Assembly (NCBI GenBank): GCA_043812195.1
Contig: JBDRML010000015.1
Span: forward strand, 1-43,257
DNA: 43,257 nt
Origin: Candidatus Woesearchaeota archaeon
Lineage (GTDB): Archaea > Nanobdellota > Nanobdellia > SCGC-AAA011-G17 > PNOQ01
Direction of reading: 5' to 3'
The notes under the pieces: generated by a model
Told to the model about the DNA's origin: nothing
Database searches by the model: none
What the model saw: only the letters and a program-made list of their open reading frames with translations
Translations under genes and position numbers: made by a program
Shown here: positions 3,571 through 22,780 of the stretch, one piece after another
How the letters are laid out: each line of letters opens with the position of its first letter
How positions within the stretch are numbered: position 1 is the stretch's first letter

Positions 3571-3614
3571 ATCAAAAATAACCAGAAATTCTTATTTAAA
3601 GTTATCTATTTGTA

Positions 3615-3636
3615 TAATAAATAATTTTAAAAAGCA
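3615..3636 (+). repeat. 22-bp inverted repeat, left copy (TAATAAATAATTTTAAAAAGCA); contains a BRE/TATA-like sequence upstream of the integrase
   Basis: Exact reverse complement of 8176..8197. Confidence 0.85.
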
Positions 3637-3667
3637 AGCTAATATACTAAAATTTATTGAAAGAAAA

Positions 3668-4930
3668 ATGGGATTAGAAAAGATACGAGAAGAAAAATTA
3701 AAGGAAACAATACAACGAGTATTAAAAGACGACATAAAACCAGCATATAAAAATAAATTTTATATGAACAAAAAGCTAAGTGAAAATAACAAAAAAATAC
3801 TAGTAGACTTCTATAGGGATTTAGTATTAAGTAAAGTTCCATCAAAACATAGAAGAGCATTATCTCTACAGACACACCTATCATATATGAAAACTATAAG
3901 ATTACTAGGATTATTTACTAACAAAGACTATAAAGAAATAGGAATGGAAGATGTAGATAAATATGTGATGTATTATATCGATAGAGGGTCTACACACGGA
4001 ACATTAAACACTCTTAGAAAGTGTGTTAAAGTCTTCTTTCGGTGGTTAGGTAAACCAGAAATTGATGATGGTCTAAAAATTGAGCCAATGTTAATAAAAA
4101 GAAACAGAACTAGCGATTTGTTAACTAGTGAAGACATAAAGACTTTAGTTGGTGCATGTAAGAATTTAAGAGATAAAGTAATAATACAACTATTATATGA
4201 TTCAGGTATGAGAGTTGGCGAATTATTAAATCTTAGAATAAAGGACATTAACTTTGATGACTATGGAGCTGAAATTGAATTAAAAGGAAAAACAGGAGAG
4301 AGAAAGATTAGAGTAGTAGATTCTGTTAGCATCCTTTTACAATTTATTAACCAACATCCATTTAAGAACGACAGGGAACATTGCTTGTTTTATTGTTTTG
4401 GTTCAAAAAAATTTGGTTCACCACTTGAAAGACCTAGTATTCATTCTCTTTTAAGAGAAGTTAAGGACAGAACTGGAATAGAGAAACCAACTAACCCACA
4501 TAATTTTAGACATTCACACTTAGATTATTTAGGTAAATGTGGGTTTAATGAAAGAGATATAATGATGAGAGCAGGTTGGAAGACACCAGACATGGCTAAA
4601 GTTTATCTCCACTATGGAGAAGACCACACAAATAATAAATATGCTGAACTGAAAGGAAAGACAATTATTAAACAGGAACTAAAGACTAATGAATTACAAG
4701 CAGTCATTTGTAAGAGGTGTCAGCAAACTAATAACTTTGATAACTTATATTGTTCTAAATGTGGGTTTGCACTAGGAAAATCACTAAAAGACATTAAAGA
4801 AAAACAGGACAACTTCTTATTAAACCTACAAGATGAAATTAGAAAGCTTAAAGGTGCCATTAATAATATAGGTGAATCACATCTACTTAACCCACCTATC
4901 AAAATGATTAATGAGTTGGAGGTTAATTAA
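3668..4930 (+). CDS. Tyrosine recombinase/integrase with C-terminal Zn ribbon
   Basis: Catalytic residues in LYDSGMRVGE, KGKTGER, HNFRHS, RAGW, KVYLH; C-terminal CKRC...YCSKCG. Confidence 0.92.
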   Translation: MGLEKIREEKLKETIQRVLKDDIKPAYKNKFYMNKKLSENNKKILVDFYRDLVLSKVPSKHRRALSLQTHLSYMKTIRLLGLFTNKDYKEIGMEDVDKYVMYYIDRGSTHGTLNTLRKCVKVFFRWLGKPEIDDGLKIEPMLIKRNRTSDLLTSEDIKTLVGACKNLRDKVIIQLLYDSGMRVGELLNLRIKDINFDDYGAEIELKGKTGERKIRVVDSVSILLQFINQHPFKNDREHCLFYCFGSKKFGSPLERPSIHSLLREVKDRTGIEKPTNPHNFRHSHLDYLGKCGFNERDIMMRAGWKTPDMAKVYLHYGEDHTNNKYAELKGKTIIKQELKTNELQAVICKRCQQTNNFDNLYCSKCGFALGKSLKDIKEKQDNFLLNLQDEIRKLKGAINNIGESHLLNPPIKMINELEVN

Positions 4931-4931
4931 A

Positions 4932-5069
4932 ATGAGCAATCTATGTGAAGTATGTAATAAAAGAATTAAAGACAAATGGAAACAAATAACTTTGAATGTA
5001 AAAACAAAAGAATATTATGTATGTAGTGATAAGTGTTGTTTGAAATTTGTAGAGAAAATAGAAATGTAA
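4932..5069 (+). CDS. Small TRASH/MYM-like Zn-binding protein (45 aa; not in ORF track)
   Basis: MSNLCEVCNKRIKDKWKQITLNVKTKEYYVCSDKCCLKFVEKIEM; starts 1 nt after the integrase stop. Confidence 0.65.
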   Translation: MSNLCEVCNKRIKDKWKQITLNVKTKEYYVCSDKCCLKFVEKIEM

Positions 5070-5074
5070 TTTTT

Positions 5075-5209
5075 TTATTCTTTATTCTTTTTTCTTTTCT
5101 TTAATTTTTTTTGTAACCATCTAATAAAGAGATGCATTCCTACAAATCCTAATATTGTGAATACAATACTTACTATTGCAGTTGGCCAATCTGTTGGTAG
5201 GTTTGACAT
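5075..5209 (-). CDS. Small single-pass membrane protein with basic tail (44 aa; not in ORF track)
   Basis: MSNLPTDWPTAIVSIVFTILGFVGMHLFIRWLQKKLKKRKKNKE. Confidence 0.55.
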   Translation of the reverse strand: MSNLPTDWPTAIVSIVFTILGFVGMHLFIRWLQKKLKKRKKNKE

Positions 5210-5374
5210 ATAATTATTATAATTATAGTTATTATAAACGTTTTTGTTTTAAGGAACCGATCGGAGATATAATAATGTTTAGAGATGTTGGTCTGTGCAA
5301 AATAAGGTATTAAACATTCAGTTCTAAGTTTAAATCACATTGAACCTATTTAAAAATAAGTTGCTGAGAGTGTG

Positions 5375-5410
5375 ATAGGTGTATTATATATCTAATTTAA
5401 ATACACCTAT
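5375..5410. repeat. Perfect 11-bp inverted repeat with 14-nt AT-rich spacer
   Basis: ATAGGTGTATT (5375-5385) and AATACACCTAT (5400-5410). Confidence 0.7.
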
Positions 5411-5479
5411 AGTTGAATTATATGTTTTCGAAAAGGATCTAACAGGGTGAAACTATATGCTCCCTAGTGAATCCTACAG

Positions 5480-5734
5480 CTATGCTGTCATAGGATTATG
5501 AGTATCACCATTTCTTTCGGCTTTTAATTTCTTGAATATGATTAGAGCTACATCCACATCATTCTGTGTCAAGCTTCCTTCTAATGTCAGAGTTAACTCT
5601 GGTGTTACAATATTCACACTCTTTTTAAGAGCTTCAATTTCAGATTTATCTTTAAGAAATAGAACGCGTTGTTCTAGTATTTCTATTCTCTTCTTTAAAC
5701 TATATTCTTTATCTTTTGTTTTAGGGCTTGTCAT
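5480..5734 (-). CDS. Hypothetical coiled-coil protein of the element
   Basis: Overlaps the stop of the upstream ORF; heptad-like LKKRIEILEQRVLFL. Confidence 0.55.
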   Translation of the reverse strand: MTSPKTKDKEYSLKKRIEILEQRVLFLKDKSEIEALKKSVNIVTPELTLTLEGSLTQNDVDVALIIFKKLKAERNGDTHNPMTA

Positions 5735-5946
5735 ACTCTTAACTTCCTTGCTAGTTGTAGTTTGGTTGTAAAATAGTTAGAATGCATATAACAACAGAAT
5801 CTTTCAGTATCATATGAATGTTTAGACGATAAATTATCTAAAGCTATGTCTAGTTTGTCTACCTTGATTTTCTTTCCACAATAAATACATCTCCTACTAC
5901 TATTATCTTCTACCAATTTGTTAGACATTTCTTTATATTTTTTCAT
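5731..5946 (-). CDS. Small Zn-binding (TRASH-like) protein
   Basis: CIYCGK...RFCCYMH; translationally coupled. Confidence 0.55.
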   Translation of the reverse strand: MKKYKEMSNKLVEDNSSRRCIYCGKKIKVDKLDIALDNLSSKHSYDTERFCCYMHSNYFTTKLQLARKLRV

Positions 5947-6064
5947 TGGCTAGTGTTAGTTTGTGTAATAAGTCTCTAATATCTAATAGAGCGATTAGGA
6001 TTCCGTCTGATGTGGATAATGCTCCTATTTCTTTATCTTCTAGTAGACTATTTTTTGTGTCCAT
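5933..6064 (-). CDS. Small hypothetical protein (43 aa; not in ORF track)
   Basis: MDTKNSLLEDKEIGALSTSDGILIALLDIRDLLHKLTLANEKI; overlaps the next ORF start. Confidence 0.45.
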   Translation of the reverse strand: MDTKNSLLEDKEIGALSTSDGILIALLDIRDLLHKLTLANEKI

Positions 6065-6110
6065 TAAGTTGGTGGTGTCCTCCCATTTTGGTAAATGTGA
6101 ATTTCATTAG

Positions 6111-6340
6111 TAGGGACTCCATAATACTCATTATTACTCATATACAACTTTTTCCGGTTGGTCTTCTTATATATCCCTCCAATCCAAAAATGAGTAATAT
6201 GAGTAATAATGAAGAATAGGGGACTCCTATTGATATTATTAATAATTTTACTAAAAATTTTAATACTCATAATACTCATATTACTAACTATCTTTTTAGA
6301 TATTAATTCATTTTGAAAAAGAATAATATGTGTAATAATT
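6111..6340. repeat. Iteron-like cluster, putative replication origin of the element
   Basis: TACTCAT at 6125, 6135, 6264, 6273; inverted ATGAGTA at 6190, 6199; AT-rich spacer; directly downstream of the SF3 helicase gene. Confidence 0.7.
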
Positions 6341-6348
6341 TTCATATT

Positions 6349-7908
6349 TTAATTTACCCCTCTCTTTAATGTCAATCCTAGAATATGTCTACTAGTAGTA
6401 TATTCATTAGTAATTTCATTTTTTACATTCTTAGGTCTTATCTCCCAACCTAATTTTTTAAGTCTCTTACTCAATTCAATTTTTGAAATAGTGTTCTTAT
6501 TATTTTTCTTCAAGAATGACAGGTAAGATATATAAAAAGTAGAAAAGTCTATACTATCATTTGAATCATTACATACACATTCTTTTGAGATAAATATTTC
6601 TTCTTGTGTTATTGCTCTCTCATTGTATCTTTGTCTTCTTATATTAAAATCCCCATCATTAGTAAATATTCGTTCTATATATAACTTCTTAGCAAGTCTT
6701 AAACATTTCTTAGCTAGATTCCTATATTCTTCTTCTGGTATTTTTGATAGTACATCTTTTTCTTTAGTAAAAGTATTAGGAAAATCAATAATCTTAACTC
6801 TTCTAAAGAAACCATCAGAATCATCTTCAGATTTAGGAATCTTATTAGTAGGAATAAGAAACTTAGCATAATTAATAATATCAAATAATGCACCACCTTT
6901 ATACTCAGCAGGTAACGAATCTTCACCACTACCTCTCTTCAAAATATCTGATTTTTTTATTTCATCAACTTCAGTTTCTGATAATGTGACTACTAGTTTT
7001 TTATGAAATTTAGTAGTCTCAAATCTTGGATTATTCATTAACATTTCAATACTTGAAGAAGTTACATTATGAGAACCAATAAATTTTTCTAAAAGTTTAT
7101 CAAATGTAGATTTACCATTTGCTCCACTTCCAAAGAAAAAGAAAACTCTATGAATAAAATATTGGGGTACACAGCAAAAAGCCAAAATTTCATATAGTTC
7201 TTGCTTATGTTCTTCACCTACCCAACTAATAAATAAATTATCAATCTTAGGAGTGTCTTCACTATCACCAACATCAAACATAATAGGATTAGTAACAAAA
7301 TGTTTAGGTTCAGCTTCCATAATTTCATCTGTTTCTATATCATATATTTTATTTTTAAATTGAATCCAAGTATTTTTAGATTCTGATGGAGTATATTTTC
7401 TCCCTAATTGTTTTAGAACATTCAATATTTCAGTTCTAGATTTTGTTTCTATAATCCCTACTTTCATTAAATCTCTAATTTTATTTAAAATTGTTATTTC
7501 ATCTATTGTTTCATAACAGAATTTTTCACTATTCCAAAACCAAAATCTTTTATTTTCATCATAAAAAAATGGTTGATGTTTATAAAATTCTTCTGCTTGT
7601 CCCCATCTACCAAATGAATTAAAAGAATTTTTAACTTCTTTATCCATTTCTTCTTTTCTTTCTGCTAGTTGTTTATGTATATGTTCTGAACCTAATCTAA
7701 TTTTTTTTGATACTTCATCATAATCGGTTGTTATATATGGCAATTCTTTTTTAATCTCTGTAAGTCTTTCTCTTAATTGATTTTCAGCAGCACCTCTAAT
7801 ATAGTTTCTAATTTTACCTCTGTCTTCAGCTCCTAGGTTTGTTAGTTGGGGTAGTATGTCATTTTCTATTTCTTTCTTTAAATCATTGAAATCAATTTCA
7901 GTAGTCAT
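6349..7908 (-). CDS. D5/P4-type superfamily 3 helicase (replication protein); no recognisable primase domain
   Basis: D5_N-like WIQFKNKIYDI; Walker A GSGANGKS; SGEDSLPAEYKG; PTNKIPK; DGFFRRVKIIDF; C-terminal winged-helix-like region. Confidence 0.88.
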   Translation of the reverse strand: MTTEIDFNDLKKEIENDILPQLTNLGAEDRGKIRNYIRGAAENQLRERLTEIKKELPYITTDYDEVSKKIRLGSEHIHKQLAERKEEMDKEVKNSFNSFGRWGQAEEFYKHQPFFYDENKRFWFWNSEKFCYETIDEITILNKIRDLMKVGIIETKSRTEILNVLKQLGRKYTPSESKNTWIQFKNKIYDIETDEIMEAEPKHFVTNPIMFDVGDSEDTPKIDNLFISWVGEEHKQELYEILAFCCVPQYFIHRVFFFFGSGANGKSTFDKLLEKFIGSHNVTSSSIEMLMNNPRFETTKFHKKLVVTLSETEVDEIKKSDILKRGSGEDSLPAEYKGGALFDIINYAKFLIPTNKIPKSEDDSDGFFRRVKIIDFPNTFTKEKDVLSKIPEEEYRNLAKKCLRLAKKLYIERIFTNDGDFNIRRQRYNERAITQEEIFISKECVCNDSNDSIDFSTFYISYLSFLKKNNKNTISKIELSKRLKKLGWEIRPKNVKNEITNEYTTSRHILGLTLKRGVN

Positions 7909-8093
7909 TTTCTAGTCTCCGTTCTAAAATCAATAGTAGTATCTTCTATACTGAGAATATATTTTTTATTTATTGAGTGTATCTTATTACCAGTCTTAAA
8001 GGTAATCCAATCTTGATCTTCACGTAAAATTAAACCAAATAGAACTTTTACTTCATTATTGATAGTATCAATTTTAATTTTTTTACATTTCAT
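7905..8093 (-). CDS. Small Sm/Hfq-like beta-rich protein (tentative)
   Basis: VLFGLILREDQDWITFKTGNKIHSINKKYILSIE follows the Sm1/Sm2 pattern; coupled to the helicase gene. Confidence 0.45.
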   Translation of the reverse strand: MKCKKIKIDTINNEVKVLFGLILREDQDWITFKTGNKIHSINKKYILSIEDTTIDFRTETRK

Positions 8094-8175
8094 TTTATAT
8101 TTCTCTCTACATTTATTTTAATCTTTCAACCTAGAACTTAAATCTTGAATCTTATCTAAAATTAATAATCACATC

Positions 8176-8197
8176 TGCTTTTTAAAATTATTTATTA
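8176..8197 (-). repeat. 22-bp inverted repeat, right copy; promoter-like for the replication operon
   Basis: TGCTTTTTAAAATTATTTATTA is the exact reverse complement of 3615..3636. Confidence 0.85.
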
Positions 8198-8334
8198 AGA
8201 TCTTATGAGAAAATACAAACCCATGAAGATTTCGGTAGTTATGCTTGTGTATAAGCAATAAAGAAGAAGCTTTAAAGAAATATGATAGCTTAAAATAAAA
8301 ATCACTAGATTGATATTTTTAGGTACTATATGTC

Positions 8335-8396
8335 AAATCGCAACCTTTTTAAGACTTAATATTTCCTTAAAAATCATAGATTTAAGGTTTAATATG
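8335..8396 (+). promoter_or_regulatory. Repeated promoter/leader, copy 1
   Basis: CTTTTTAAGACTTAA-N16-ATAGATTTAAGGTTTAA then ATG; both blocks and the spacing recur at 10647..10709. Confidence 0.7.
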
Positions 8397-8801
8397 TCAA
8401 GAAGACACAAATATAAGCAACACAAAAGTAGAAGTGGAAGTTTGTTAAGAAATAGAACTTTAATCAGAACAATCTTGATTATTATTTGTTTGGTTTTATT
8501 AAGTATTTTTTTGATTACATTTAACACGAATATCTTTATTGCTCTAGCATTTGTAGGACTTATTCTATTTATTTATTGGGAAAGTACATTAACACTAGAA
8601 GAAAAGAGAAGGAGAGCTGAGAAACAAGCCAAACAAAGAGAAGAAAGAGAGCATTACAAAAGAGTTGAGAAAGAGGCTTATATTTCTGGAAGAGCTCAAG
8701 AAAGAGGTAGAATGAGAGCTGAGAGAGATGAAGTTCAAAGAAAAGCAGAAGTGGAATACCAAAAAAAACTTAGGAAAAAAATGTTTGGGGGTTGGAGATG
8801 A
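8394..8801 (+). CDS. Two-TM membrane protein with charged coiled-coil tail
   Basis: Start moved to ATG 8394 after the repeated leader; two hydrophobic helices then an E/R/K-rich tail. Confidence 0.65.
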   Translation: MSRRHKYKQHKSRSGSLLRNRTLIRTILIIICLVLLSIFLITFNTNIFIALAFVGLILFIYWESTLTLEEKRRRAEKQAKQREEREHYKRVEKEAYISGRAQERGRMRAERDEVQRKAEVEYQKKLRKKMFGGWR

Positions 8802-9043
8802 ATAAAACATATTTATTCTTAGGAATTGTGATTGTGCTTATTGTTCTTGGTGGGTTTGGAATGGTGGGCGTAATAGGTTATTTATTAGGGGTATTTGCAG
8901 TTATATACATTCTTTATTGGATTTTTTTAAGACCTGTAGTAAAACATAAGGGTTGGGAATGCGAATTCTGTTCAAGAAAGTTTTCAACAGAAGTGGGAGC
9001 AGAAAAACACGAAAAGAAATGTAGTAAGAGGAAGAAGAAATGA
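8798..9043 (+). CDS. Two-TM membrane protein with C-terminal C2HC Zn finger
   Basis: Hydrophobic hairpin, then WECEFCSRKFSTEVGAEKHEKKC. Confidence 0.7.
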   Translation: MNKTYLFLGIVIVLIVLGGFGMVGVIGYLLGVFAVIYILYWIFLRPVVKHKGWECEFCSRKFSTEVGAEKHEKKCSKRKKK

Positions 9044-9459
9044 ATAAAACACTATTAATTGGTATAATCCTATTAGCAGTTGTTATTTCTGGTTGTGATT
9101 ATGAAAGCACAGATTATACAAAAGGAAACTTAGACGGAGATACAAACACAAACACTATATTGGAAGAAACAAGTTTAGAAATAATCAACCACGAACTTAA
9201 AAGCGAAACAACTTATTCAATAAAAACTTGGTTTGTTGAAGGGACAGCCAAGAATACAGGCACAACAACCATAGAAATGGCTACAATTAAAGTAAGGTTC
9301 TTTGATGAAGACGGAACTTTAATTGAAAACGGGTTTGATGTAGTTTCTGATTTAGACCCAGATATGACTTTTAAGTTTAAAGTTTCTTTTATGGGAGATA
9401 TTATGGCTGAAGATAAACCAGCTGATTATGATATCGCTATTGAAGGATTGGATTATTAA
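9040..9459 (+). CDS. Lipoprotein with FxLYD-type Ig-like domain
   Basis: Lipobox VISGC; VEGTAKNTG...IKVRFFDEDG...DLDPDMTFKFKV. Confidence 0.7.
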   Translation: MNKTLLIGIILLAVVISGCDYESTDYTKGNLDGDTNTNTILEETSLEIINHELKSETTYSIKTWFVEGTAKNTGTTTIEMATIKVRFFDEDGTLIENGFDVVSDLDPDMTFKFKVSFMGDIMAEDKPADYDIAIEGLDY

Positions 9460-9467
9460 GGTTTAAG

Positions 9468-10421
9468 ATGTCAAAAACTGAAAAGGAAGGAATTGGATTT
9501 TTCTTAGGATTATTTATAGTCACGCTATTTGTTAGCTCACTTTTTAGTCTTGGACTTTCCATTTCGACCTTTGAAAATGTTGGTTATTCAGGTTTAGGTG
9601 AAGCTATCGGAACTTCTATTTTATTTTTTTTAGCAGGGTTATTTATGTATAGAATAAAACCTTATGCTGTAGAATTCACAAAAATAGTTTTGAGTGTTGT
9701 TCTTGTTGAAAATGTTATTTTACTAATATTTTTCCCAAGTGAGATTACTACTTTGTCTTCATTACCTTATTATATAATTTGGCTTTTCTTCCTTCAATAT
9801 TCCAAAAATGTTGAAAGGGTGTATGGACATCTAAAAGAAAAGAAAGAAGGAACTCAAATTTGGCCTATTTTAGCTATAGTCTTTTCATTTACAGCATTTG
9901 TTCACGCTTTTGTGTTTGGTATTATTGCTTTGAAAAGAATATCAAAGAATAGAAAATTAAAAGGTATGGGTATTGCTGTAATTGGAATAATAATTTCAGT
10001 AATAGTTTTAATTATGATAATGTTATTGGGGGCTTTTGAAGGTTTTACTGAAGAATTAGATAATATTGAAGAAGCGTCTCTTGAAGGAGAAATGGTATGT
10101 AATGATTTTTGTCTTGGTGTCGAGGGAACAGAAACCTATTTAGCTTATGTAAATTTAGATAAAACAATCTGTGAATGTTATGATAGTCAAGAAAATACAT
10201 TAGAATCAATAGAGTTTTCAGAGTCGGATATCGAATCAAGATATGAAGAGATTGTAAATGAATTAACAGGATATACTTGTGAGTATAACGCATATAATTG
10301 CGCCGATTTCTCAACTCACGATGAGGCACAAGCACTATTTGAAGTGTGTGGTGGAATATTTAACGATGTTCATTATTTAGACGGCGATGATGACGGAATA
10401 GCTTGCGAGAGTTTACCTTAA
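9468..10421 (+). CDS. Polytopic membrane protein (DUF4190-like hairpin) with C-terminal Excalibur Ca-binding domain
   Basis: About 6 TM helices; FGIIALKRI...KGMGIAVIGIII; [13 protein letters not shown]...LDGDDDGIACESLP. Confidence 0.75.
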   Translation: MSKTEKEGIGFFLGLFIVTLFVSSLFSLGLSISTFENVGYSGLGEAIGTSILFFLAGLFMYRIKPYAVEFTKIVLSVVLVENVILLIFFPSEITTLSSLPYYIIWLFFLQYSKNVERVYGHLKEKKEGTQIWPILAIVFSFTAFVHAFVFGIIALKRISKNRKLKGMGIAVIGIIISVIVLIMIMLLGAFEGFTEELDNIEEASLEGEMVCNDFCLGVEGTETYLAYVNLDKTICECYDSQENTLESIEFSESDIESRYEEIVNELTGYTCEYNAYNCADFSTHDEAQALFEVCGGIFNDVHYLDGDDDGIACESLP

Positions 10422-10423
10422 AA

Positions 10424-10648
10424 ATGGACGAATTCATATTTTGGCTTATCTTTATTGCTTTAATAGTTATTATTGGAAATCAAACACGAGAACGTCAAGA
10501 AAGAGAAACAAAAGGTATGACTAAAAAACAAAAAGCAAAATATTTTAATGAGATTAAAAAACAGCAAAAAGAGGAATGGGGAAAGGTTTTAGGGTGGATA
10601 ATACTTATTGTGCTCATTTTGATTAGTTTGTTTATTGGTTTGACTTAA
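10424..10648 (+). CDS. Small two-TM membrane protein
   Basis: Likely start MDEFIFWL; hydrophobic ends around a charged loop. Confidence 0.6.
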   Translation: MDEFIFWLIFIALIVIIGNQTRERQERETKGMTKKQKAKYFNEIKKQQKEEWGKVLGWIILIVLILISLFIGLT

Positions 10649-10709
10649 ATCACAAGCTTTTTAAGACTTAACTTTTCACAAATGTTTATAGATTTAAGGT
10701 TTAAGAATG
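10647..10709 (+). promoter_or_regulatory. Repeated promoter/leader, copy 2
   Basis: Same 15-bp and 17-bp blocks as 8335..8396. Confidence 0.7.
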
Positions 10710-10973
10710 GCTGAAACAATAAAAATAAACAATTGGTTTAAATCTCTTATTTTTTTCTTAGGATATCCAATACACGCTTCAATCTTTATGTTATTTGCTT
10801 TAGGAAAAATGGGAGACGATTTAGACAATCCTAAAGAAGAATATCATACTTTTGAGCCCTGGGTTAAAAATGTTGTAATTAAACAAAGTATTGACAAGAT
10901 TAAATACACTTTAGGATTGATAACTTTTGGCCTTATAGTTTTGTTAATACTTGGGTTTTTGTTGAGTTGGTGA
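10707..10973 (+). CDS. Small two-TM membrane protein
   Basis: Two hydrophobic segments; follows the repeated leader. Confidence 0.6.
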   Translation: MAETIKINNWFKSLIFFLGYPIHASIFMLFALGKMGDDLDNPKEEYHTFEPWVKNVVIKQSIDKIKYTLGLITFGLIVLLILGFLLSW

Positions 10974-10980
10974 ACTAAAA

Positions 10981-11106: not shown

Positions 11107-11152
11107 GCAACATAATAGATTTAGTAATAATTCTAAATCATTTATAAACACC

Positions 11153-11259: not shown

Positions 11260-11280
11260 TTTATCAATTAAATTTGATGT

Positions 11281-13158: not shown

Positions 13159-13254
13159 AATTTATTTTAGAATTATATATATTTAAATTTAACCACTAAG
13201 CAATTCAATTTTGATTCAAAAGAAAGATTTTTATATTTTTTGGGTGGTAATTAT

Positions 13255-14826
13255 TTAGGTGGTACCTAACATTGACTTTGACAGTTTTGTTAGTTCTCCA
13301 TCTCCATTACAAACTAATGCATATGGAAGGCTAATTCCTTGAGTAGTATCTATTCTAATAGCATAAATAACAATTGGAAATATTTTTTCAACATATGTGC
13401 TCATTCCTTCTCTACCAAATTGTACATCATAAGTTTGAAGACCAAAAATCATACTACCTCTCCATATGTTAAAATACTCTTCTGCATCGGAATCATTATT
13501 AAATTCTTCTTTATCTAAGATTTTTATTTGATGATTATTTTTTAATTCAAATATTCTTATAGCGTCATCTATAGAATTATCACATTTATCCATTAATATT
13601 TCTTCTTGAATATCTTGATTTTTGTCGTCTATAAATGTTTCATAATCTGGCCTATATTCTTTATCTCCAGAATCTTCTTGTATTTCTTCTACTATTTTAA
13701 TTTCTTTTACTTCAAGATAGTATCTTCCATTGTATACTCTACTGTCATCTCTTAAATAAGCAGTAATTTTAACATTTTTGCCTAAATATGTATTATCTGC
13801 ATCTGTAAGTATATTTGCTATAATTTCTTCTCTATCTTTTTGAGTTAAACAAATATTATAATTTTTTATGTTATCAATATTACATTCTGTTAAAACCCCT
13901 GTAGTCTTAATAAATTTATTTATATATGATTCAACATTTCTTATTATTTCTATAAGTTCTTTTTCTTGAGGGATAGTTGATGAAATGATTGCAATGATGC
14001 TAAATATCACTAAAGTTGTTATAATAATTGGCACAATTGGGCTTAATTTTTTCTTTTTTGGTGAATAATTATGAGTTTGTTTTTTCCTCTTTACTATTTC
14101 CTCTTTCCTCTTTTTACTTTTATTGCTCTTTTCAATTTTAGGGTGATATGAATTATGTTTATAATTTGGTTGATAATTTTGTTCTTCTTGTAACCTTTGA
14201 TGTTTGGAACCTAATAAAGATTTAAGAGCTTCGCCATATTTAGCTTCTTGTTTTTCCTCCTTTTCTATTATTTTATTTTGATATACTAAACAAGGGTGAC
14301 CTTTTATATCTGTTAAGTTATTAAAATCTGCTAGTTTTGGTTCAATAGCTTTTTTATGTTTTTTGCAATATAATTTTTTGCAATATTTACATTTATATTT
14401 TCCAATTTCTTTACATGAATGATAATAGCATTCATTCTTTTTGATCCTTCTTTTTAAATTCTTTATATTTTTTGATTTTTCAGTAATATGAACTGTTCCT
14501 GCTGGAGGAGACCACATAGTTCTTTTTACACTTGCGTGTGTAGTGTGGAAATTTGGATCATGTGACCGATTAATCAAATGTGTTGTTTCATGTGAAGCAG
14601 TTTCTTCTATTTTATCAAAACTCATATTTTTAAGAATTTTCTTAGATATACAAATCAGGTTTTGTTCTATGTGGATGTGCGCTATTTCTTCTTCATTAAA
14701 TGGGCATTCTGTATCCCAAAATTTAACCGCAGGCACCCTGACGCCCAATAATCTTGCAGTTTCCTTTACTACAGCTAAAAATCGCTTTTCTTTTAGTTTA
14801 TAAAATGAATTCTGATGGGTCTTCAT
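13255..14826 (-). CDS. Membrane-anchored protein: SprT/WLM/YgjP-like metallopeptidase, AN1-like Zn finger, one TM and an extracellular domain
   Basis: ASHETTHLINRSHDPNFH; CYYHSC...CKYCKKLYCKKH...H; TM IVPIIITTLVIFSIIAIIS; start likely MKTHQ. Confidence 0.7.
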   Translation of the reverse strand: MKTHQNSFYKLKEKRFLAVVKETARLLGVRVPAVKFWDTECPFNEEEIAHIHIEQNLICISKKILKNMSFDKIEETASHETTHLINRSHDPNFHTTHASVKRTMWSPPAGTVHITEKSKNIKNLKRRIKKNECYYHSCKEIGKYKCKYCKKLYCKKHKKAIEPKLADFNNLTDIKGHPCLVYQNKIIEKEEKQEAKYGEALKSLLGSKHQRLQEEQNYQPNYKHNSYHPKIEKSNKSKKRKEEIVKRKKQTHNYSPKKKKLSPIVPIIITTLVIFSIIAIISSTIPQEKELIEIIRNVESYINKFIKTTGVLTECNIDNIKNYNICLTQKDREEIIANILTDADNTYLGKNVKITAYLRDDSRVYNGRYYLEVKEIKIVEEIQEDSGDKEYRPDYETFIDDKNQDIQEEILMDKCDNSIDDAIRIFELKNNHQIKILDKEEFNNDSDAEEYFNIWRGSMIFGLQTYDVQFGREGMSTYVEKIFPIVIYAIRIDTTQGISLPYALVCNGDGELTKLSKSMLGTT

Positions 14827-14980
14827 TTTAAAAATAAATGAATAAAAACACATAAAAATCTTTCTAAATGTTGCACGGAATAGGATAATAGTGTAAGATA
14901 GAAAATTCTTATCACGGACAAGGTTTTGGTTATGTTGAGCAATAAATCAAACCAAATTAAGATTGTTTAAAGATAGTCGT

Positions 14981-15172
14981 TCATTTTTTAACCAAAAGTC
15001 TTGCTAAGTTTATACTTCCCCACAATATAAGCACATAAATCAAGTATCTAAAAAAATTAACAATCGCTATTGAAAACCCACCAAGAGCTAATCCCATACC
15101 CATTATTAAAAGCATTATTCCAACAATCCCCATAAATATTCTATTTAATGTATCTTGCTTTTTCTTAGCTAT
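14981..15172 (-). CDS. Two-TM membrane protein (63 aa) with apparent ATA start; not in ORF track
   Basis: (I)AKKKQDTLNRIFMGIVGIMLLIMGMGLALGGFSIAIVNFFRYLIYVLILWGSINLARLLVKK; GAGGTG 7 nt upstream. Confidence 0.45.
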   Translation of the reverse strand: MAKKKQDTLNRIFMGIVGIMLLIMGMGLALGGFSIAIVNFFRYLIYVLILWGSINLARLLVKK

Positions 15173-15479
15173 TTTCTTTCACCTCACAATAATCTTCATC
15201 ATCATCATCATACGTAAAAACACATTTACAATAAGCAATTTTGTCTTCTAATCTTGGTTTATCTTCTAAAGTTCTATATATTCTACAAGTAGTATCTGAT
15301 ATTGGTTCTCCATCTATAATTACACTACTTTTTGCACACCAATATTTACAATCATTTTCTAATTGATTTAACTCACTTTCACTAACTTTAGTAATTTCTA
15401 CAATCACAAAGAAAATGAGTATAACTAAAAATATCCCTATAGCAATATGTGGTATCTTTGATTTTTTCTTTTTAGGCAT
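15165..15479 (-). CDS. Single-TM protein with Cys-rich extracellular domain
   Basis: Basic N-terminus, TM helix, CKYWC...C...CKC...C. Confidence 0.6.
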   Translation of the reverse strand: MPKKKKSKIPHIAIGIFLVILIFFVIVEITKVSESELNQLENDCKYWCAKSSVIIDGEPISDTTCRIYRTLEDKPRLEDKIAYCKCVFTYDDDDEDYCEVKENS

Positions 15480-15480
15480 T

Positions 15481-15591
15481 TTATTTCTCTTTCTTCAACT
15501 TCTTTCTTTTATATCCATGTGACATCCATCCAATACTTTCATCTTTTCTTTGTTTGACTTTCCTGTCTAAATAATTCTTTCTTTTAGCCAT
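15481..15591 (-). CDS. Small basic peptide (36 aa; not in ORF track)
   Basis: MAKRKNYLDRKVKQRKDESIGWMSHGYKRKKLKKEK; 1-nt gaps to both neighbours. Confidence 0.5.
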   Translation of the reverse strand: MAKRKNYLDRKVKQRKDESIGWMSHGYKRKKLKKEK

Positions 15592-15592
15592 T

Positions 15593-15724
15593 TTAACTCT
15601 CCTTATCCTTAAACTTACCACAAACTTCGCACTTCATAGATTGTCTAAACTTACCATTTCCAATGTTAATATATCCTCCTATCTTAATCCACTTATGTCC
15701 TTTAAATAAACATTTAATTCCCAT
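15593..15724 (-). CDS. Small DUF1660-like Zn-binding protein (43 aa; not in ORF track)
   Basis: MGIKCLFKGHKW...MKCEVCGK (CxxxGHxW...CxxCG). Confidence 0.6.
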   Translation of the reverse strand: MGIKCLFKGHKWIKIGGYINIGNGKFRQSMKCEVCGKFKDKES

Positions 15725-15726
15725 CT

Positions 15727-16029
15727 TTAAGGTAAGCTTTCACAAGCTACTCCATCTCCATCTCCATCTAAATAGTGAACATCATATCCGCACTTTTCAA
15801 GCATAACTTGGGCTTGGGCTTGTGTAGAAAAATCAGCACAATTGTATTTGTTGTAAGAACAATCTGAGTCTACTGCTCTTTTTTCTTTGTAATACCCATC
15901 ATAATTATCTTCATATAAACTTCTCTCATATCTACTTTCCATCATTTCACTTGAAATGAACATAGAAATTATAAAATAAAATGCTAAAATTCCCATAATC
16001 CAACCCCACCAACTTCCTTTCTTATTCAT
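15727..16029 (-). CDS. Membrane-anchored Excalibur Ca-binding domain protein
   Basis: N-terminal TM; [13 protein letters not shown]...[14 protein letters not shown]. Confidence 0.8.
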
Positions 16030-16421
16030 TTTTTCGCCTTCTCAATAACTTCTTTAGCGAGATTTTTAATTTCTTTATCAAGCACTTTCTTCTGTTCATT
16101 TTTATCCAATTTTTGAAAAGCTAATCTTTTATCATATTCAACAAATGTGTTTCTAAGCATAGCTTCTTGTTCGTCTAACTTATCTTGTTTCTTTGGTTCT
16201 AAAAAACCACATATAATAAAAATAACCCCCAAAGAATACAATAACAATATGAATGGTTCATAAATTTCAGACATAACACAACTTTGAACTTCATATGAAG
16301 TTGCAGGGTCAATACCATAAGAACTTTGGCAAGGTATATTGTAAAATTTATCAATAGTTGAAAAACTACTGCCAGCTATTATAAAAAAGATTCCCAAAAT
16401 AAACCATTGTTTTCTATTCAT
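16026..16421 (-). CDS. Two-TM membrane protein with cytoplasmic helical tail
   Basis: Two hydrophobic helices around a loop with 2 Cys; coupled to neighbours. Confidence 0.65.
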
Positions 16422-18143
16422 TTATTTCTCCTTCTTTCCTTTCTTATTCACCCTACAATAATCTTCTCTCATTACAGAAGGTCTAACTAATTTTAATGCA
16501 CCTTTGAAATCTTCATCTGTGATTTTTAATTTGTCTAATGTTTCTTTTGGTATTGTTTGATTATCTTTTAATTTAATCTCTAGAAGTTTTCTTCTGATAG
16601 CATTCATAGTTGCTTCTTTTGCTAGTAATTGTAAGTCTGCTCCAACAAACCCTTGTGTATTTTTTGCTAGTTCTTCTAGGTCTACTGATTTTGTCAAAGG
16701 CATGTTTTTTGTGTGGATTTTTAATATATCTAACCTTCCTTTCTTATCTGGAACATAAAACACTATTTCTCTATCAAATCTTCCTGGTCTTCTTAATTCA
16801 GGATCTAATGAGTTTGGTTTGTTTGTTGCTCCAATAACTACAACCCCTGCTCTTTTGTTTAGACCATCCATCATAGCTAATAATTGTGCTACTACTCTTT
16901 TTTCTACTTCACCATATGTTTCTTTTCTTTTTGATGCTATTACATCTATTTGATCTATGAAAATAATAGAAGGCGCTTTTTCAGTTGCTTCTTCAAATAT
17001 TTTTCTTATTCTTTTTTCAGATTCTCCGTAAAATTTATTCATAATTTCTGGACTATTGACTAAAATGAAATTAGCTTCTGATTCATTTGCTACTGCTTCA
17101 GCTAATAGAGTCTTACCTGTTCCAGGTGGACCGTGTAATAAAACCCCTTTAATAGTTTTACTTCCTAATTTTTGGAATATTTCTGGGTGTGTTAATGGTA
17201 ATTCTACCATTTCTCTTATTTTTTTAATTTCATCATCTAACCCACCTACATCTTCGTAAGTTACATCTAGAAGTAATTCGTCTTCTGTTATCTGCATTGC
17301 TTTTGGACTTACTTTTATTTCTGTGTTTTCTGTTATGATTATTGGTATTCCTACTGGTTTAGTTTTTATTACCTTAAATTTTAAGTCTCCAATTGACCCT
17401 GTAAACTCTTGTGCAAAAGTTTCAAATATGTCATTAAATGGAGTTCCTGAGCATGTGGATTTTCTTCTTTTTTTATCATTTAAAGCAACTATGTCTCCTT
17501 TAACTATAACTCTTCCTAAAAGACCTTTTGTGAATACACTTGGGTCTGCTTGAATCATGATACCTTGCTGTGAAGGTGCTACTGTGATTTTTTTAGCTTC
17601 TTTGACCTGTGCTTTATTCACATTTACGATGGAACCTATCTCAGTTAAAGAGTTTCTTCTTAAAATATTATCCATCCTAATTGTTTGTTCTTTTTCATCT
17701 GACGGATATGCTCTGTCTACAATTCCAACGGTTTTTCTTCCACCTTCTATTTTAACTATATCTCCTGCTCTAACATCTATTTCTTTCATAAATTTAGATG
17801 ATATTCTAACAATACCTGTATTATTTTCTTCTGGTGCTGAATCTTTGACTTTCAAAGCTACACATCTTGGTGATTTTTTATTGTGGGTTTCAAAGAAATC
17901 TTTTGTTGCTTTTGTTTCGATTGGTTTGTAATCTTTTCCTAATGTTTTATCAAGATATTCCTTTTTACATTTCTTTTCGTGTTTTAGAGTCTCTTTTTCA
18001 GTATCAAATACTTTATCACAAAATTCGCACATTTTCCCTTGTTTTTCTTTGAACTCTTTTTCGTGTTTTTCAGCTTCGTGTTTTTCAGCTTCTTTTTTTG
18101 TATCAAATCCTTTATCACAATATTCACATTCCCAATTTGCCAT
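16422..18143 (-). CDS. Zn-finger-fused truncated Cdc48/VAT (N domain + D1 only) with Walker B E->Q
   Basis: Two CxxC...H fingers; Cdc48 N domain (IRMDNILRRN); VTYEDVGGL, ELPLTHPEIF, GPPGTGKT, IIFIDQID, RRPGRFDREI; ends just after ALKLVRPSVMRE. Confidence 0.9.
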   Translation of the reverse strand: MANWECEYCDKGFDTKKEAEKHEAEKHEKEFKEKQGKMCEFCDKVFDTEKETLKHEKKCKKEYLDKTLGKDYKPIETKATKDFFETHNKKSPRCVALKVKDSAPEENNTGIVRISSKFMKEIDVRAGDIVKIEGGRKTVGIVDRAYPSDEKEQTIRMDNILRRNSLTEIGSIVNVNKAQVKEAKKITVAPSQQGIMIQADPSVFTKGLLGRVIVKGDIVALNDKKRRKSTCSGTPFNDIFETFAQEFTGSIGDLKFKVIKTKPVGIPIIITENTEIKVSPKAMQITEDELLLDVTYEDVGGLDDEIKKIREMVELPLTHPEIFQKLGSKTIKGVLLHGPPGTGKTLLAEAVANESEANFILVNSPEIMNKFYGESEKRIRKIFEEATEKAPSIIFIDQIDVIASKRKETYGEVEKRVVAQLLAMMDGLNKRAGVVVIGATNKPNSLDPELRRPGRFDREIVFYVPDKKGRLDILKIHTKNMPLTKSVDLEELAKNTQGFVGADLQLLAKEATMNAIRRKLLEIKLKDNQTIPKETLDKLKITDEDFKGALKLVRPSVMREDYCRVNKKGKKEK

Positions 18144-18144
18144 C

Positions 18145-18309
18145 TCATTTCATCTCCCTTATAACCAATTCACCCCTTTCATTCAAAACAATAGAAACCT
18201 CATCTTTAGGTTTCCAACCTTTCAATTGAGCTATTTGTTTAGGAACAACTACAGCTAATGAGTTTCCTATTCTTTGTATTTTTCTGGTTAGTTCAATTTT
18301 TCCTTTCAT
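18145..18309 (-). CDS. AbrB/MazE/SpoVT-family DNA-binding protein (54 aa; not in ORF track)
   Basis: MKGKIELTRKIQRIGNSLAVVVPKQIAQLKGWKPKDEVSIVLNERGELVIREMK; stop 1 nt before the Cdc48-like start. Confidence 0.8.
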   Translation of the reverse strand: MKGKIELTRKIQRIGNSLAVVVPKQIAQLKGWKPKDEVSIVLNERGELVIREMK

Positions 18310-18311
18310 TT

Positions 18312-18938
18312 TTAATTTCCTGTAATCTTAAGTTCATTTTTATGAAAAAATGTTGGGGTTGATTCTTTTTTCCCAATGTTTATTTTGTACCCGTAAACAG
18401 TAATTTCCCCATTAAATTTATTTTCTCCATTAACTTTTCCATTTACTCTAATTTTTTTAATCCCTTTTAAAGATTTTACAACGTTTAATTTATAATCAAA
18501 ATTTTGTTTACTACCAAAATTTCCAGTAACAAAAGAAATTGTACTAATTGATTGCCCTATCCAAGCTGGAAGTGTAATTAGGTAAGATTCCCATTCTTTA
18601 ACAGTTGGTTCTAAGATTTTTACCCTTTTTAATTTTTTAATGTCAGATAAAACTCTTTTTAATTCATTAATCTTATCTTTATTCTCTTTTTTCCATTCTT
18701 TGTTTAATTCAGGAACTTCTCCAAGATGTTTTTCATAATTTATAACATTTTTTTTAATTATGCTTTTTTTATCTTCATTTAATCTTTTAAAATCTAACCC
18801 TTCCTCATTCATATATTTTTTTAAAAAATTATCTCCATCTGGTTTAATTAAATTTCGCATACATTGATTACATACTTTTTTTCTCTGTATACGAGTAAAA
18901 AAACCTAATTTCTTTTTACAATGTTCACAAACTTCCAT
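18312..18938 (-). CDS. Protein with N-terminal Zn ribbon; first gene of the leftward cargo operon
   Basis: CEHCKKKLGFF...VCNQC; TATA-like sequence about 30 nt upstream. Confidence 0.6.
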   Translation of the reverse strand: MEVCEHCKKKLGFFTRIQRKKVCNQCMRNLIKPDGDNFLKKYMNEEGLDFKRLNEDKKSIIKKNVINYEKHLGEVPELNKEWKKENKDKINELKRVLSDIKKLKRVKILEPTVKEWESYLITLPAWIGQSISTISFVTGNFGSKQNFDYKLNVVKSLKGIKKIRVNGKVNGENKFNGEITVYGYKINIGKKESTPTFFHKNELKITGN

Positions 18939-19068
18939 TTTTAGCCACTAATAGTACTAACAGAAATATTTATATATTTAATGAATTCCCTTATTATAAC
19001 AGAATTAATTCAAGGACAACGAATTATTATGTTAGTCTCTCCTGAGGCTTATATAAATAGTGAACATT

Positions 19069-19174
19069 TAACCCTAAATTCATTAGAATTTATACGTTCT
19101 GAGAAACCCCATCCAATAATGTAGATTAAACAATGAAATATTCTAATCTATAATCAAAAGAAAAGCTTTTTATA
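19069..19174 (+). repeat. About 106-bp non-coding direct repeat, copy 2
   Basis: Homologous to 11153..11259; identical core at 19087..19107. Confidence 0.8.
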
Positions 19175-19181
19175 CCTCAAA

Positions 19182-19574
19182 ATGGGCTTAAAATTAGTAA
19201 AAATGGCTAAAAAAACACTAAAAATAGTAGTAATTATGGTTTTAGTAGTTTTAGCTATGTCCATATTTATTATAAATTTCACAGAGGAAAAAGGAAACCT
19301 AAAAGTTATACAAGAAGATAAAATGGAAGAAAAAATTATAGCAGGAGATAGAGTCCCTATAACTATAGGAAAAGGTAATACTGACAAAGGCCGTGTAGAA
19401 CCAACATCGGAAGAAGATAGAATTAAAGAACTATTAGAATCTATGGGCTATCAAACTGAATTACCTAGCATACCTAATAATTATGAAAATTCAATTACAA
19501 ATAATGAAGAAGACAATACTTTTGAATTTGATATAGAATATTGGAAAAAAAGATTATTAGAAGTAGATATATAA
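19182..19574 (+). CDS. Hypothetical protein (start uncertain: 19182, 19203 or 19257)
   Basis: ORF downstream of the repeat-borne promoter; MSIFIINFTEEKG segment is duplicated at 20042. Confidence 0.5.
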   Translation: MGLKLVKMAKKTLKIVVIMVLVVLAMSIFIINFTEEKGNLKVIQEDKMEEKIIAGDRVPITIGKGNTDKGRVEPTSEEDRIKELLESMGYQTELPSIPNNYENSITNNEEDNTFEFDIEYWKKRLLEVDI

Positions 19575-19664
19575 AAAGAGGAGAAAAATGACAAATATAG
19601 ATGATATAATAGAAAGTACATGTATTGGAGTACTAACAGACTTTTTATGAGATTTTGAGCCAAA

Positions 19665-20000
19665 TTATATATTTCGTTTTAGATATTCTTTGACCGGGGC
19701 AGCAACTGTTTTTTCATTGATATTTTTGGTTATACAATATTTAGTTCTAAACCAATCTGATAGCTTCTTTATACCTCTACTTGAATTACAGCTACCACAA
19801 CAAATAGTTATATCTTGTATTTTCATTCCATCTTTCCAGTAAAATGGTCCGTCAAATTTCAAATGTTCAATAGTTGCAGAATCTTTTTGGTTGTCTCTAG
19901 TGTAGGGGTCAATCATTGTTTTATGACAATATACACATTTCTTATCTCTTGCACGGATTTTTAGCAATTCTTGATCAGGGATTCCAAAATTATTACTCAT
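19665..20000 (-). CDS. HNH endonuclease
   Basis: RARDKKCVYC...ATIEHL...ICCGSCNSSRG. Confidence 0.8.
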   Translation of the reverse strand: MSNNFGIPDQELLKIRARDKKCVYCHKTMIDPYTRDNQKDSATIEHLKFDGPFYWKDGMKIQDITICCGSCNSSRGIKKLSDWFRTKYCITKNINEKTVAAPVKEYLKRNI

Positions 20001-20041
20001 ACAATTTTATTATTGTATGAGATTTATAAATCTTCTTATCT

Positions 20042-20200
20042 ATGTCAATATTTATTATAAATTTTACAGAGGAAAAAGGAGAATTAAAAGTTTTATATGA
20101 AGAAGAAAAGAAGAAGAAAAGAAAATTAACAGGAGTAACCCCTAGATTTTCAAGAACTCAAGACTTTAGTAAGCAAGTATCACAAATGTTAGGTATATAA
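20042..20200 (+). CDS. Short paralog or fragment of the 19182 ORF (52 aa; not in ORF track)
   Basis: MSIFIINFTEEKGELKV...; DNA 20040..20080 is near-identical to 19255..19295. Confidence 0.4.
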   Translation: MSIFIINFTEEKGELKVLYEEEKKKKRKLTGVTPRFSRTQDFSKQVSQMLGI

Positions 20201-20215
20201 TCATTTACTCTGTGT

Positions 20216-20245
20216 GGTAGTGGAGTTTTAGTATTCTCCACTACC
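20216..20245. terminator. GC-rich hairpin between convergent ORFs (possible terminator or binding site)
   Basis: Perfect 10-bp stem GGTAGTGGAG / CTCCACTACC with 10-nt loop. Confidence 0.5.
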
Positions 20246-20487
20246 TAGATAAAAACACTAAGAACTAATTGTTTCTCTTTGGAAAGTTCTTCACCATTTA
20301 TTTTATAATACCCCTTATACTCAAAATTAGATTCATCATACTTAAAAAAACAATCATCACTTTTTTTTCTATACACCATTTTACATATTTTACATCTGTA
20401 TATTCCTCTATCAAAAACAGAATCCCATTCTGCGAATACATTTCTACCTTTACAACATTCTATATTAGGATTTGAATCAAACTTCAT
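20245..20487 (-). CDS. Small Cys-rich hypothetical protein
   Basis: ECC...YRCKIC; TATA-like sequence about 25 nt upstream. Confidence 0.5.
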   Translation of the reverse strand: MKFDSNPNIECCKGRNVFAEWDSVFDRGIYRCKICKMVYRKKSDDCFFKYDESNFEYKGYYKINGEELSKEKQLVLSVFI

Positions 20488-20675
20488 AGAAGTGAAATCA
20501 GGCTCTAATTTTTAAAATTATTGCTGACTAAACACTATTGTTTTGTTTGTATAGCAAAATGGAACGATTTATATATTTAATTATTTATCATTCTTATTAA
20601 CAAATAATTTAATGGAGGCATAAAACTATAGTATATTAGTTAATAAAAATGAAAGTTTTTATTTAAAACTTTCTC

Positions 20676-22770: not shown

Positions 22771-22780
22771 TAAAATCTAT

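Follow-up and report, generated by a model that had tools for sequence, protein, structure and literature searches.

Cryptic integrated elements have been described in Thaumarchaeota as integrase-bearing multigene insertions without virion or conjugation genes; in the excerpted text of that survey their median size is 17 kb, and among the 68 elements with a defined site 15 are intergenic and 14 lie in protein genes (PMC6563490). The excerpted parts of a review of archaeal tyrosine recombinases make no mention of DPANN or Nanoarchaeota (PMC8371274). DPANN genomes are tiny, and their mobile elements are little described. Wu, Liu and Ni are said, by the title of a Nature Microbiology article of 2024, to have covered the mobile elements of DPANN archaea. 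Here we describe a 17,105-bp insertion at positions 3571 to 20675 of a contig from a groundwater Candidatus Woesearchaeota archaeon, inside the spacer in front of the aminoacyl-tRNA synthetase gene alaS. The window referred to below is the whole contig (C15, 43,257 bp) of a metagenome bin of 938 kb in 45 contigs with 29% G+C. We read the insertion as a cryptic integrated element, an integrative plasmid-like replicon of a Woesearchaeota-type DPANN archaeon, and put the probability of this reading at about 0.6. The element is of the same kind as the archaeal cryptic integrated elements already described, and it has a non-tRNA target. By conserved gene order, the locus is a clean case of a replicon-type element in a promoter spacer of 35-40 bp instead of a tRNA gene; knowledge of this kind of element is left unchanged by the findings.

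Several described systems resemble the element in part. Like the Thaumarchaeota elements, it is an integrase-bearing multigene insertion without virion or conjugation genes and has a size near their median; according to the same excerpt, att sites are short or hard to find there and non-tRNA targets are common (PMC6563490). Unlike them, it has a DPANN host, an integrase of a zinc-ribbon subfamily, a target in the promoter spacer of an essential aminoacyl-tRNA synthetase, and a truncated copy of host CDC48. It is also like pSSVi and pSSVx of Saccharolobus and the pTN3-type elements, which, in the portions of the sources available, are small archaeal replicons found free or integrated (PMC8371274; bioRxiv 10.1101/2025.02.15.638363). 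The integrases of the SSV, pTN3 and pT26-2 types are described in these portions as 'suicidal', since their genes are split by integration, and the pSSVi integrase is likewise in two moieties (PMC8371274; bioRxiv 10.1101/2025.02.15.638363). In contrast, the integrase gene of the present element is whole and matches PF00589, and PF16795 (Phage_integr_3) is absent at E-values up to 0.01; pSSVx carries a fusellovirus ATPase, which the element does not (same excerpts). Like psiM100 of Methanothermobacter wolfeii, which has an AT-rich intergenic att site outside any tRNA gene, the element is integrated in AT-rich intergenic DNA, but psiM100, as excerpted, is a tailed virus with structural genes (PMC8371274), none of which were found here. 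Satellite phage P4 and the phage-inducible chromosomal islands (PICI) have an integrase beside a P4-family helicase (TIGR01613) and a comparable, satellite-like size. The element differs from these in having no helper-exploiting or packaging genes and no recognised primase domain, and in its archaeal host.

The insertion was delimited by comparison of all open reading frames (ORFs) of the window with the alaS neighbourhoods of 14 relatives from the same family or order, whose alaS products are 45-53% identical to that of the host. The features at its borders are as follows.

1804-3570, minus strand: alaS, 588 aa, host flank (PF01411, 7.7e-147); its 5′ end is intact, relatives aligning from residues 1-13.
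3571-3667: left junction, comprising the alaS promoter spacer and the integrase upstream region, with the left motif at 3585-3607 and its core TTATTTAAA at 3592-3600.
20488-20675: right junction, with the right motif at 20651-20674 and its core TTATTTAAA at 20659-20667, abutting the stop codon of the next gene.
20676-21059, minus strand: conserved 127-aa host gene, right flank, with intact C-terminus; its homologues adjoin alaS in relatives.

The preliminary description had proposed a search for relatives in which alaS directly abuts the gene at 20676, and this arrangement was found in eight of the 14 (G039, G021, G002, G016, G015, G008, G017 and G005). In these eight genomes nothing but the homologue of the 127-aa gene separates alaS from the following conserved gene; an iterated profile search backs the identity of that homologue. 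A few tens of bases, 34-37 in six genomes measured, lie between the stop codon of the homologue and the alaS ATG. Since these relatives have an empty site, 3571-20675 is an insertion into a short alaS promoter spacer. The flanking genes are intact on both sides, and past the insertion the relatives keep the gene order of the window: 21034-21594, TFE, 24073, 24636, and on beyond 33 kb. In the remaining relatives other than three with different spacer contents described below, alaS is inverted (G006), lies in another context (G033) or stops at a contig end (G014).

The left 4.7 kb of the insertion form a replicon module of integrase, superfamily 3 (SF3) helicase and iterons. As the preliminary description had outlined, the integrase converges on a block with the helicase, small ORFs and iterons; the genes of this block are on the minus strand. 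The module consists of the following.

3668-4930, plus strand: tyrosine integrase, 420 aa, intact (PF00589, 2.5e-26; PF13495).
4911-5069, plus strand: small Cys-rich, zinc-ribbon-like ORF of 52 aa (45 aa from the second ATG).
5075-5209, minus strand: 44-aa ORF with one hydrophobic helix.
5210-5479: non-coding, 270 bp, separating the helicase operon from the integrase side; contains a perfect inverted repeat of 11 bp (5375-5385 and 5400-5410).
5480-5734 and 5731-5946, minus strand: two small ORFs of 84 aa and 71 aa, the latter Cys-rich, without a significant family in Pfam, PHROGs or NCBIfam.
6123-6278: iteron cluster, candidate replication origin, with three tandem TGAGTAWT pairs in the order minus, plus, minus.
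6349-7908, minus strand: P4/D5-type SF3 helicase, 519 aa (DUF5906/D5_N; Walker A motif GSGANGKST).
7905-8093, minus strand: 62-aa ORF at the head of the helicase operon.

The helicase exceeds the cutoff of the 'phage/plasmid primase, P4 family' model (TIGR01613; 119.6 bits against 108.7), and no primase domain was recognised in its 519 aa with Pfam or NCBIfam. TGAGTAWT occurs 12 times in the window, and six of these copies fall within the 156 bp of 6123-6278, where Tandem Repeats Finder also reports rows; whole-window shuffles hold 6.44 copies on average, and none of 100 reached 12. The cluster adjoins an AT-rich stretch directly 3′ of the helicase gene and is, by its sequence features, a credible origin; the listed ORF 6064-6345, which runs over the iterons, is probably spurious. 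The inverted repeat in 5210-5479 may be a regulatory or binding site. The 62-aa ORF had been called Sm-like. This name was not borne out, as no profile of Pfam, PHROGs or NCBIfam matches it and its single-sequence AlphaFold model, an all-beta fold of four strands, is of low confidence (mean pLDDT 50.6).

The integrase starts 98 nt upstream of the alaS start codon and is composed of an N-terminal SAM-like domain, a catalytic domain, a C-terminal zinc ribbon (CxxC...CxxC) and a coiled coil. Its sequence contains the strings SGMRVGE, HNFRHS, AGW and VYLHY, which we take to be motifs with catalytic roles, and its best relative of solved structure is XerA of Pyrococcus abyssi (4a8e, 5.5e-21). It was nevertheless rejected as the chromosomal XerA: it reaches 131 bits against an NCBIfam XerA cutoff of 220, has 420 aa against about 260-290 aa, and has homologues in only 44 genomes of the 240 in the order. 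The host possesses a separate 264-aa XerA-like gene on contig C36 (201 bits). A suicidal type was likewise discarded on the grounds given above, and the domain matches place the enzyme in the classical, non-suicidal kind. The homologues are spread over 38 of 132 genera, several genomes having more than one copy, and no relative was found in IMG/VR. Of 20 stretches around integrase homologues, nine have the homologue no further than about 2.4 kb from a contig end; integrase-bearing elements tend to interrupt the assembly of these genomes.

As to the targets of this integrase family, five of 32 other integrase-homologue loci have a tRNA gene ahead of the integrase, on its strand and no more than 300 nt before its start. 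The family would thus also use tRNA targets, and the position of these genes would place the att site where the alaS spacer lies in the window. Six loci were searched for repeats, five with the tRNA gene beside the integrase and one with it 1.5 kb away; they contain no partial tRNA repeat of at least 14 nt and none of any kind within the tRNA gene, and their 30-nt flanks gave only AT-rich 12- and 13-mers, in L189 and L061. A general repeat search of L061 and L062 gave no att repeats. In the window itself, the preliminary description had seen no tRNA at either end, and this holds: the sole tRNA gene is tRNA-Arg at 33426-33502, and Rfam has no match within 3000-22000.

A sister element in the same genome speaks further to the targets. 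On contig C45, at about 41575-53532 (locus L058, 1576-13533), about 11.9 kb carry a second helicase (30% identical) and a second integrase, 31% identical over the full length including the zinc ribbon, as well as genes for a serine resolvase, an HNH-like and an AbrB-like protein. Resolvase, helicase and integrase are bracketed by two direct copies of the 14-mer GTAGGCAAGTGTAA, which are 11,944 bp from each other and are the only ones in the 938-kb genome. The right copy precedes the integrase start by about 65 nt, and the left one overlaps the stop codon of a 313-aa Cys-rich ORF. Judged by its sequence and placement, the 14-mer is a good att candidate, in which case short non-tRNA sites directly ahead of the integrase gene also serve this integrase family. 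The window element and the C45 sister define an integrase subfamily with a C-terminal zinc ribbon, spread over the 38 genera. Their HNH genes have no pairwise similarity (E 0.5).

The distribution of the helicase is sporadic. Of the 240 genomes in the order, 14 have a homologue, and the 24 other genomes in the host family have none. A metagenome scan gave 65 loci with identities of 21-50%, which are at or above 35% for 62 loci, and many of the helicase-bearing metagenome contigs are only 4-8 kb long. The relatives sit with serine resolvases, small tyrosine integrases, DNA methylases or STAND-like NTPases, which by gene content is a plasmid-like set. One metagenome contig of 12,667 bp (L141) has a 127-bp terminal direct repeat and is therefore taken as circular (12.5 kb); it encodes a 778-aa helicase homologue, a STAND-like NTPase, a serine resolvase, an 823-aa protein without known family and a tyrosine integrase. 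It is a distant relative and a candidate free form of this element class. The integrative plasmid that the preliminary description had put forward thus agrees with an intact integrase, an SF3 helicase with adjoining iterons, genes of sporadic occurrence, and a circular relative bearing helicase and integrase; its DPANN-like assignment also stands, as the nearest helicase-bearing records bear the names Woesearchaeota or Pacearchaeota.

To the right of the module, about 20 further genes span 8.3-20.5 kb, in line with the cargo of some 12 kb noted earlier. They encode membrane and lipobox proteins, proteases, an HNH nuclease and a zinc-finger/CDC48-like ATPase.

8310-10973, plus strand: operon of six membrane or secreted proteins, including the next three.
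8792-9043, plus strand: membrane protein with a C-terminal zinc finger.
9040-9459, plus strand: lipobox protein (phrog_14275, a phage family with no known function, 2.2e-09).
9468-10421, plus strand: protein with five transmembrane segments and an Excalibur domain at its end.
11281-13158: two lipobox proteins, of 198 aa (plus strand) and 406 aa (minus strand), the latter with a weak transglutaminase-like core.
13255-14853, minus strand: 532-aa protein with a SprT/WLM-like HExxH metalloprotease, a Cys cluster, one transmembrane helix and a C-terminal domain.
15165-16421, minus strand: three small membrane proteins, of which 15727-16029 ends in an Excalibur domain.
16422-18143, minus strand: two C2H2-like zinc fingers, the CDC48 N domain and the first AAA domain only.
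18312-18938, minus strand: 208-aa protein with an N-terminal zinc ribbon, without a usable match.
19182-19574, plus strand: 130-aa membrane protein, a fragment of whose 5′ part (at 19251) recurs at 20036-20120.
19665-20000, minus strand: HNH endonuclease-like protein, 111 aa (phrog_2214, 5.6e-06, and four further HNH families).
20245-20487, minus strand: 80-aa Cys-rich ORF, the last gene of the insertion.

One cargo gene can be traced to the host. The CDC48-like protein is 76.6% identical over 475 aa to the host CDC48 (C31:19150-22917) and 57-70% identical to the CDC48 of 29 relatives. In a maximum-likelihood tree of 31 rows it is sister to the host copy (support 99/98), with a branch length of 0.39 against 0.046 for the host copy, a long branch that the tree tool flags as a caution. 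By this placement and these branch lengths, the copy stems from this host lineage and, since its capture, has changed at about eight times the rate of the host copy. It is a case of a gene passing from host to element, and it prompts a testable idea on how such elements might handle host proteostasis.

Within the cargo, the zinc-finger type of the CDC48-like protein also ends the membrane protein 8792-9043, and the Excalibur domains of 15727-16029 and 9468-10421 are 51-54% identical. Ahead of different cargo genes, promoter and leader segments are duplicated at 72-88% identity: 8335-8420 pairs with 10647-10732, and 11160-11259 with 19077-19174, the latter being the promoter region of the 130-aa membrane protein gene. 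The common zinc-finger and Excalibur modules, the duplicated promoters and the gene fragment make 8.3-20.1 kb one interlinked, actively rearranging unit. Judging from the 8335/10647 pair, the 8310 ORF may truly begin at an ATG at about 8394. The 406-aa protein occurs in nine of the 240 genomes, in one of them (G002) once about 2 kb from an integrase homologue, and the 532-aa protein in seven. In three other genomes (G002, G099 and G073), genes with Excalibur domains or like that of the 406-aa protein lie 2-4 kb from integrase homologues; by its sparse occurrence the cargo appears to be accessory, and by these positions linked to such integrases. ESM Atlas look-ups of the 208-aa and 532-aa proteins gave scores below 0.8 and TM-scores below 0.5, save for a short OB-like stretch.

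A degenerate direct repeat had been noticed at the two ends and taken as possible att remnants. Both motifs are indeed there; they differ by four substitutions and one insertion and share only a 9-bp core, so that the repeat as such is weak in statistical terms. The left motif is matched equally well at 111 genome sites, seven of them in the window, and the expectation for the 203-bp right junction is about 0.012 such sites, uncorrected for the AT-richness of intergenic DNA and for the motif having been chosen post hoc. Perfectly palindromic over 9 bp (GAAAGTTTT / AAAACTTTC), the right motif fits the commonest promoter words of the genome, GAAAGATTTAAATA and GAAAGATTTATAAA, in a 14-mer census. 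It was also considered as a copy of a cassette repeat; this was rejected, as a single other genome site lies within four mismatches. The two junctions align locally with a score of 25, which 1.0% of 9,913 genome tiles match or exceed. When the junctions were compared with the whole insertion, the best scores were 29-33, a score of 30 being reached by 151 of 23,381 tiles, and no better repeat pair emerged. Read as sequence, both motifs are TATA-box-like promoter sites with a common core, and these statistics do not separate att remnants from promoter similarity.

Position argues weakly in favour of att remnants. Those relatives with the empty arrangement that were read have a single TATA box, which follows the upstream stop codon by a few bases and precedes the alaS ATG by about 21 nt. 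At the left site of the insertion the distance from TATA box to ATG is kept, at 22 nt, G015 being the one relative counted (21 nt), and at the right site so is the distance from stop codon to TATA box (8 nt); lying about 165 nt from the next start codon, the right site is in our reading poorly placed as the promoter of that gene. A junction swap leans the same way. The left arm of the left site joined to the right arm of the right site scores 13.5 against the spacers of six relatives, the two sites alone scoring 10.67 (left) and 10.83 (right), and none of 161 core-containing control sites in the genome reaches 13.5. This join would be expected to score well under any insertion model, so that only the reciprocal join, given below, bears on duplication, and weakly. 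We consider the odds that the crossover took place at the alaS TATA box to be a little under even.

These considerations lead to a possible life cycle. The free form would be a circle replicating from the iterons at 6123-6278 by means of the SF3 helicase and the primase and polymerase of the host; priming by host enzymes is suggested because no primase domain was recognised in the helicase. The XerA-like integrase would have catalysed recombination between two sites, a short AT-rich one on the circle and the host spacer running from the 127-aa gene's stop codon to the alaS start codon. The crossover would most likely fall in or near the alaS TATA box, leaving a TATA-like site at both ends, and alaS would keep a promoter at the normal distance after integration. 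The 12-kb cargo of envelope proteins, proteases, HNH nuclease and captured zinc-finger/CDC48 N-D1 protein would travel along, and the element may still be able to excise. A bolder version would make the alaS TATA box the recombination core itself, with integration handing alaS a working promoter and orphaning the old one; the zinc-finger/CDC48 N-D1 protein could be a decoy or dominant-negative form of the host unfoldase that bends proteostasis, and the element perhaps the provirus of a membrane-enveloped DPANN virus. Taken jointly, these additions are unlikely.

A number of observations weigh against an integrative plasmid-like element of 17 kb. First, the tetranucleotide composition of the insertion stays within the host range (27th-83rd percentile) and bears no foreign mark. 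Second, no statistically supported direct repeat flanks the insertion by profile, local alignment or motif count. In a profile of the alaS upstream regions of 18 relatives the left motif ranks 1076 and the right motif 764 among 1156 genome hits; the profile responds to promoters in general and fails to set the two motifs apart. The reciprocal join has a score of 8.5, a value attained by 5.6% of the controls, so that the element-side arms are weakly spacer-like. Third, the nearest relative has only 53% alaS identity, and the insertion may have arisen in several steps. Fourth, no cargo gene is common to the helicase-bearing loci: when the ORFs of the window were compared with 71 such loci, only the helicase (71 loci) and the integrase (one locus) found matches, and clustering of the ORFs of 73 loci and the insertion likewise gave a helicase cluster from 64 of 74 sources and an integrase cluster from six of 74, the window counted in each, with no common cargo. 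Fifth, the contig and both its junctions come from the assembly of a 45-contig metagenome bin; a search of sequencing runs gave small shares of the sampled words (0.06-0.11) in four metagenome runs, three labelled groundwater, which are uninformative for the window. Finally, three of the 14 relatives have unrelated DNA without integrase in the same spacer, of about 0.4 kb (G012), 2.5 kb (G031) and 4.5 kb (G007). Because these inserts lack an integrase, the alaS spacer varies by other routes too; it is a recurrent point of gene gain and variation. As regards their contents, the G012 insert (L036, 14061-14464) has a single 87-aa ORF, that of G031 (L022/L023) encodes a secreted protein of beta-propeller type, and that of G007 (L034/L035) encodes large surface proteins of beta-helix type.

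Some of these points are the strength of the best surviving alternative, a composite island in which an integrase/origin/helicase element of about 4.7 kb (3.6-8.3 kb) landed beside an independent, variable surface-protein island (8.3-20.6 kb) present in the alaS spacer for other reasons, or brought it stepwise. In its favour are the integrase-free surface-protein genes of G007 and G031 and the small gene of G012 in the same spacer, and the helicase loci devoid of the window cargo, many of them on contigs of 4-8 kb. Against this, neither repeats nor junction signals point to an inner boundary near 8.1-8.4 kb; the C45 sister measures about 12 kb between its repeats and has varied cargo too; and cargo-type genes lie close to integrase homologues in the three other genomes mentioned. 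There is also no sign of repeated palindromic cassettes: neither the repeat search nor the 14-mer census of the genome found a recurring palindromic unit within 3571-20675, unlike in an integron-like cassette array. A composite origin is thus doubtful, though it is the alternative that we take most seriously, and module and cargo would rather have moved as one.

The reading as a single plasmid-like element must also be set against that of a provirus of a pleomorphic or spindle-shaped DPANN virus, with small membrane virion proteins beyond the reach of profiles. The many small two-helix membrane proteins, the lipoproteins and the AAA ATPase would fit such a virus, the lipoprotein 9040-9459 matches a phage family as noted, and one IMG/VR contig bears a helicase homologue. 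However, the AAA ATPase is a recent copy of host CDC48 and not a viral ATPase, the helicase relatives keep plasmid-like company in the form of resolvases, methylases and small integrases, and the ESM Atlas look-ups were without a usable match. Scans with Pfam, PHROGs and NCBIfam, which are informative at the profile level only, found no capsid, terminase, portal or conjugation family, as the preliminary description had already held for all but the portal, and no spike or packaging family; small membrane capsid proteins would escape these libraries. We regard a provirus as improbable.

We know of no helper virus for this host. A chromosomal satellite of P4 or PICI type, packaged by a helper virus and also raised in the preliminary description, has in its favour the layout of integrase, P4-family helicase, small ORFs and cargo, the satellite-like size and the helicase score above the TIGR01613 cutoff, but it is very improbable: the three profile libraries found no capsid-redirecting, small-terminase, packaging-ATPase or virion gene, and the archaeal satellites in the excerpt of bioRxiv 10.1101/2025.02.15.638363 carry a viral ATPase and/or a capsid gene, of which the element has neither. 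Equally remote is an assembly or binning artefact joining host DNA to a free plasmid at AT-rich promoter-like sequence, for although the bin is fragmented, both junctions lie in low-complexity AT-rich DNA and integrase homologues of other bins are often at contig ends, host DNA in conserved order flanks the insertion on both sides of one contig, so that two independent chimeric joins would be needed, and the cargo includes a CDC48 copy of this very host lineage.

Two further features of this genome lie outside the insertion. The host CDC48 has 1255 aa, against about 765-785 aa in most relatives; the additional residues interrupt the second AAA domain and have ...HN as their last letters, with S next after them, and from these sequence features they probably form an intein. 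G032, G039 and G038 also have long reading frames, which suggests inteins there as well. In the window, 22264-24040 encodes a 168-aa signal-peptide protein and a 419-aa protein that are missing from this spot in the relatives examined. The latter has an RHS repeat-associated core domain (TIGR03696, 80.7 bits), and the N-terminal 120-190 aa recur with 66-81% identity at five other loci of the genome (C45, C13, C4, C38 and C40). One of these copies adjoins the C45 element; in G022, a homologue has an integrase 0.7 kb away. With its variable tails, the family looks like polymorphic toxins in a DPANN archaeon.

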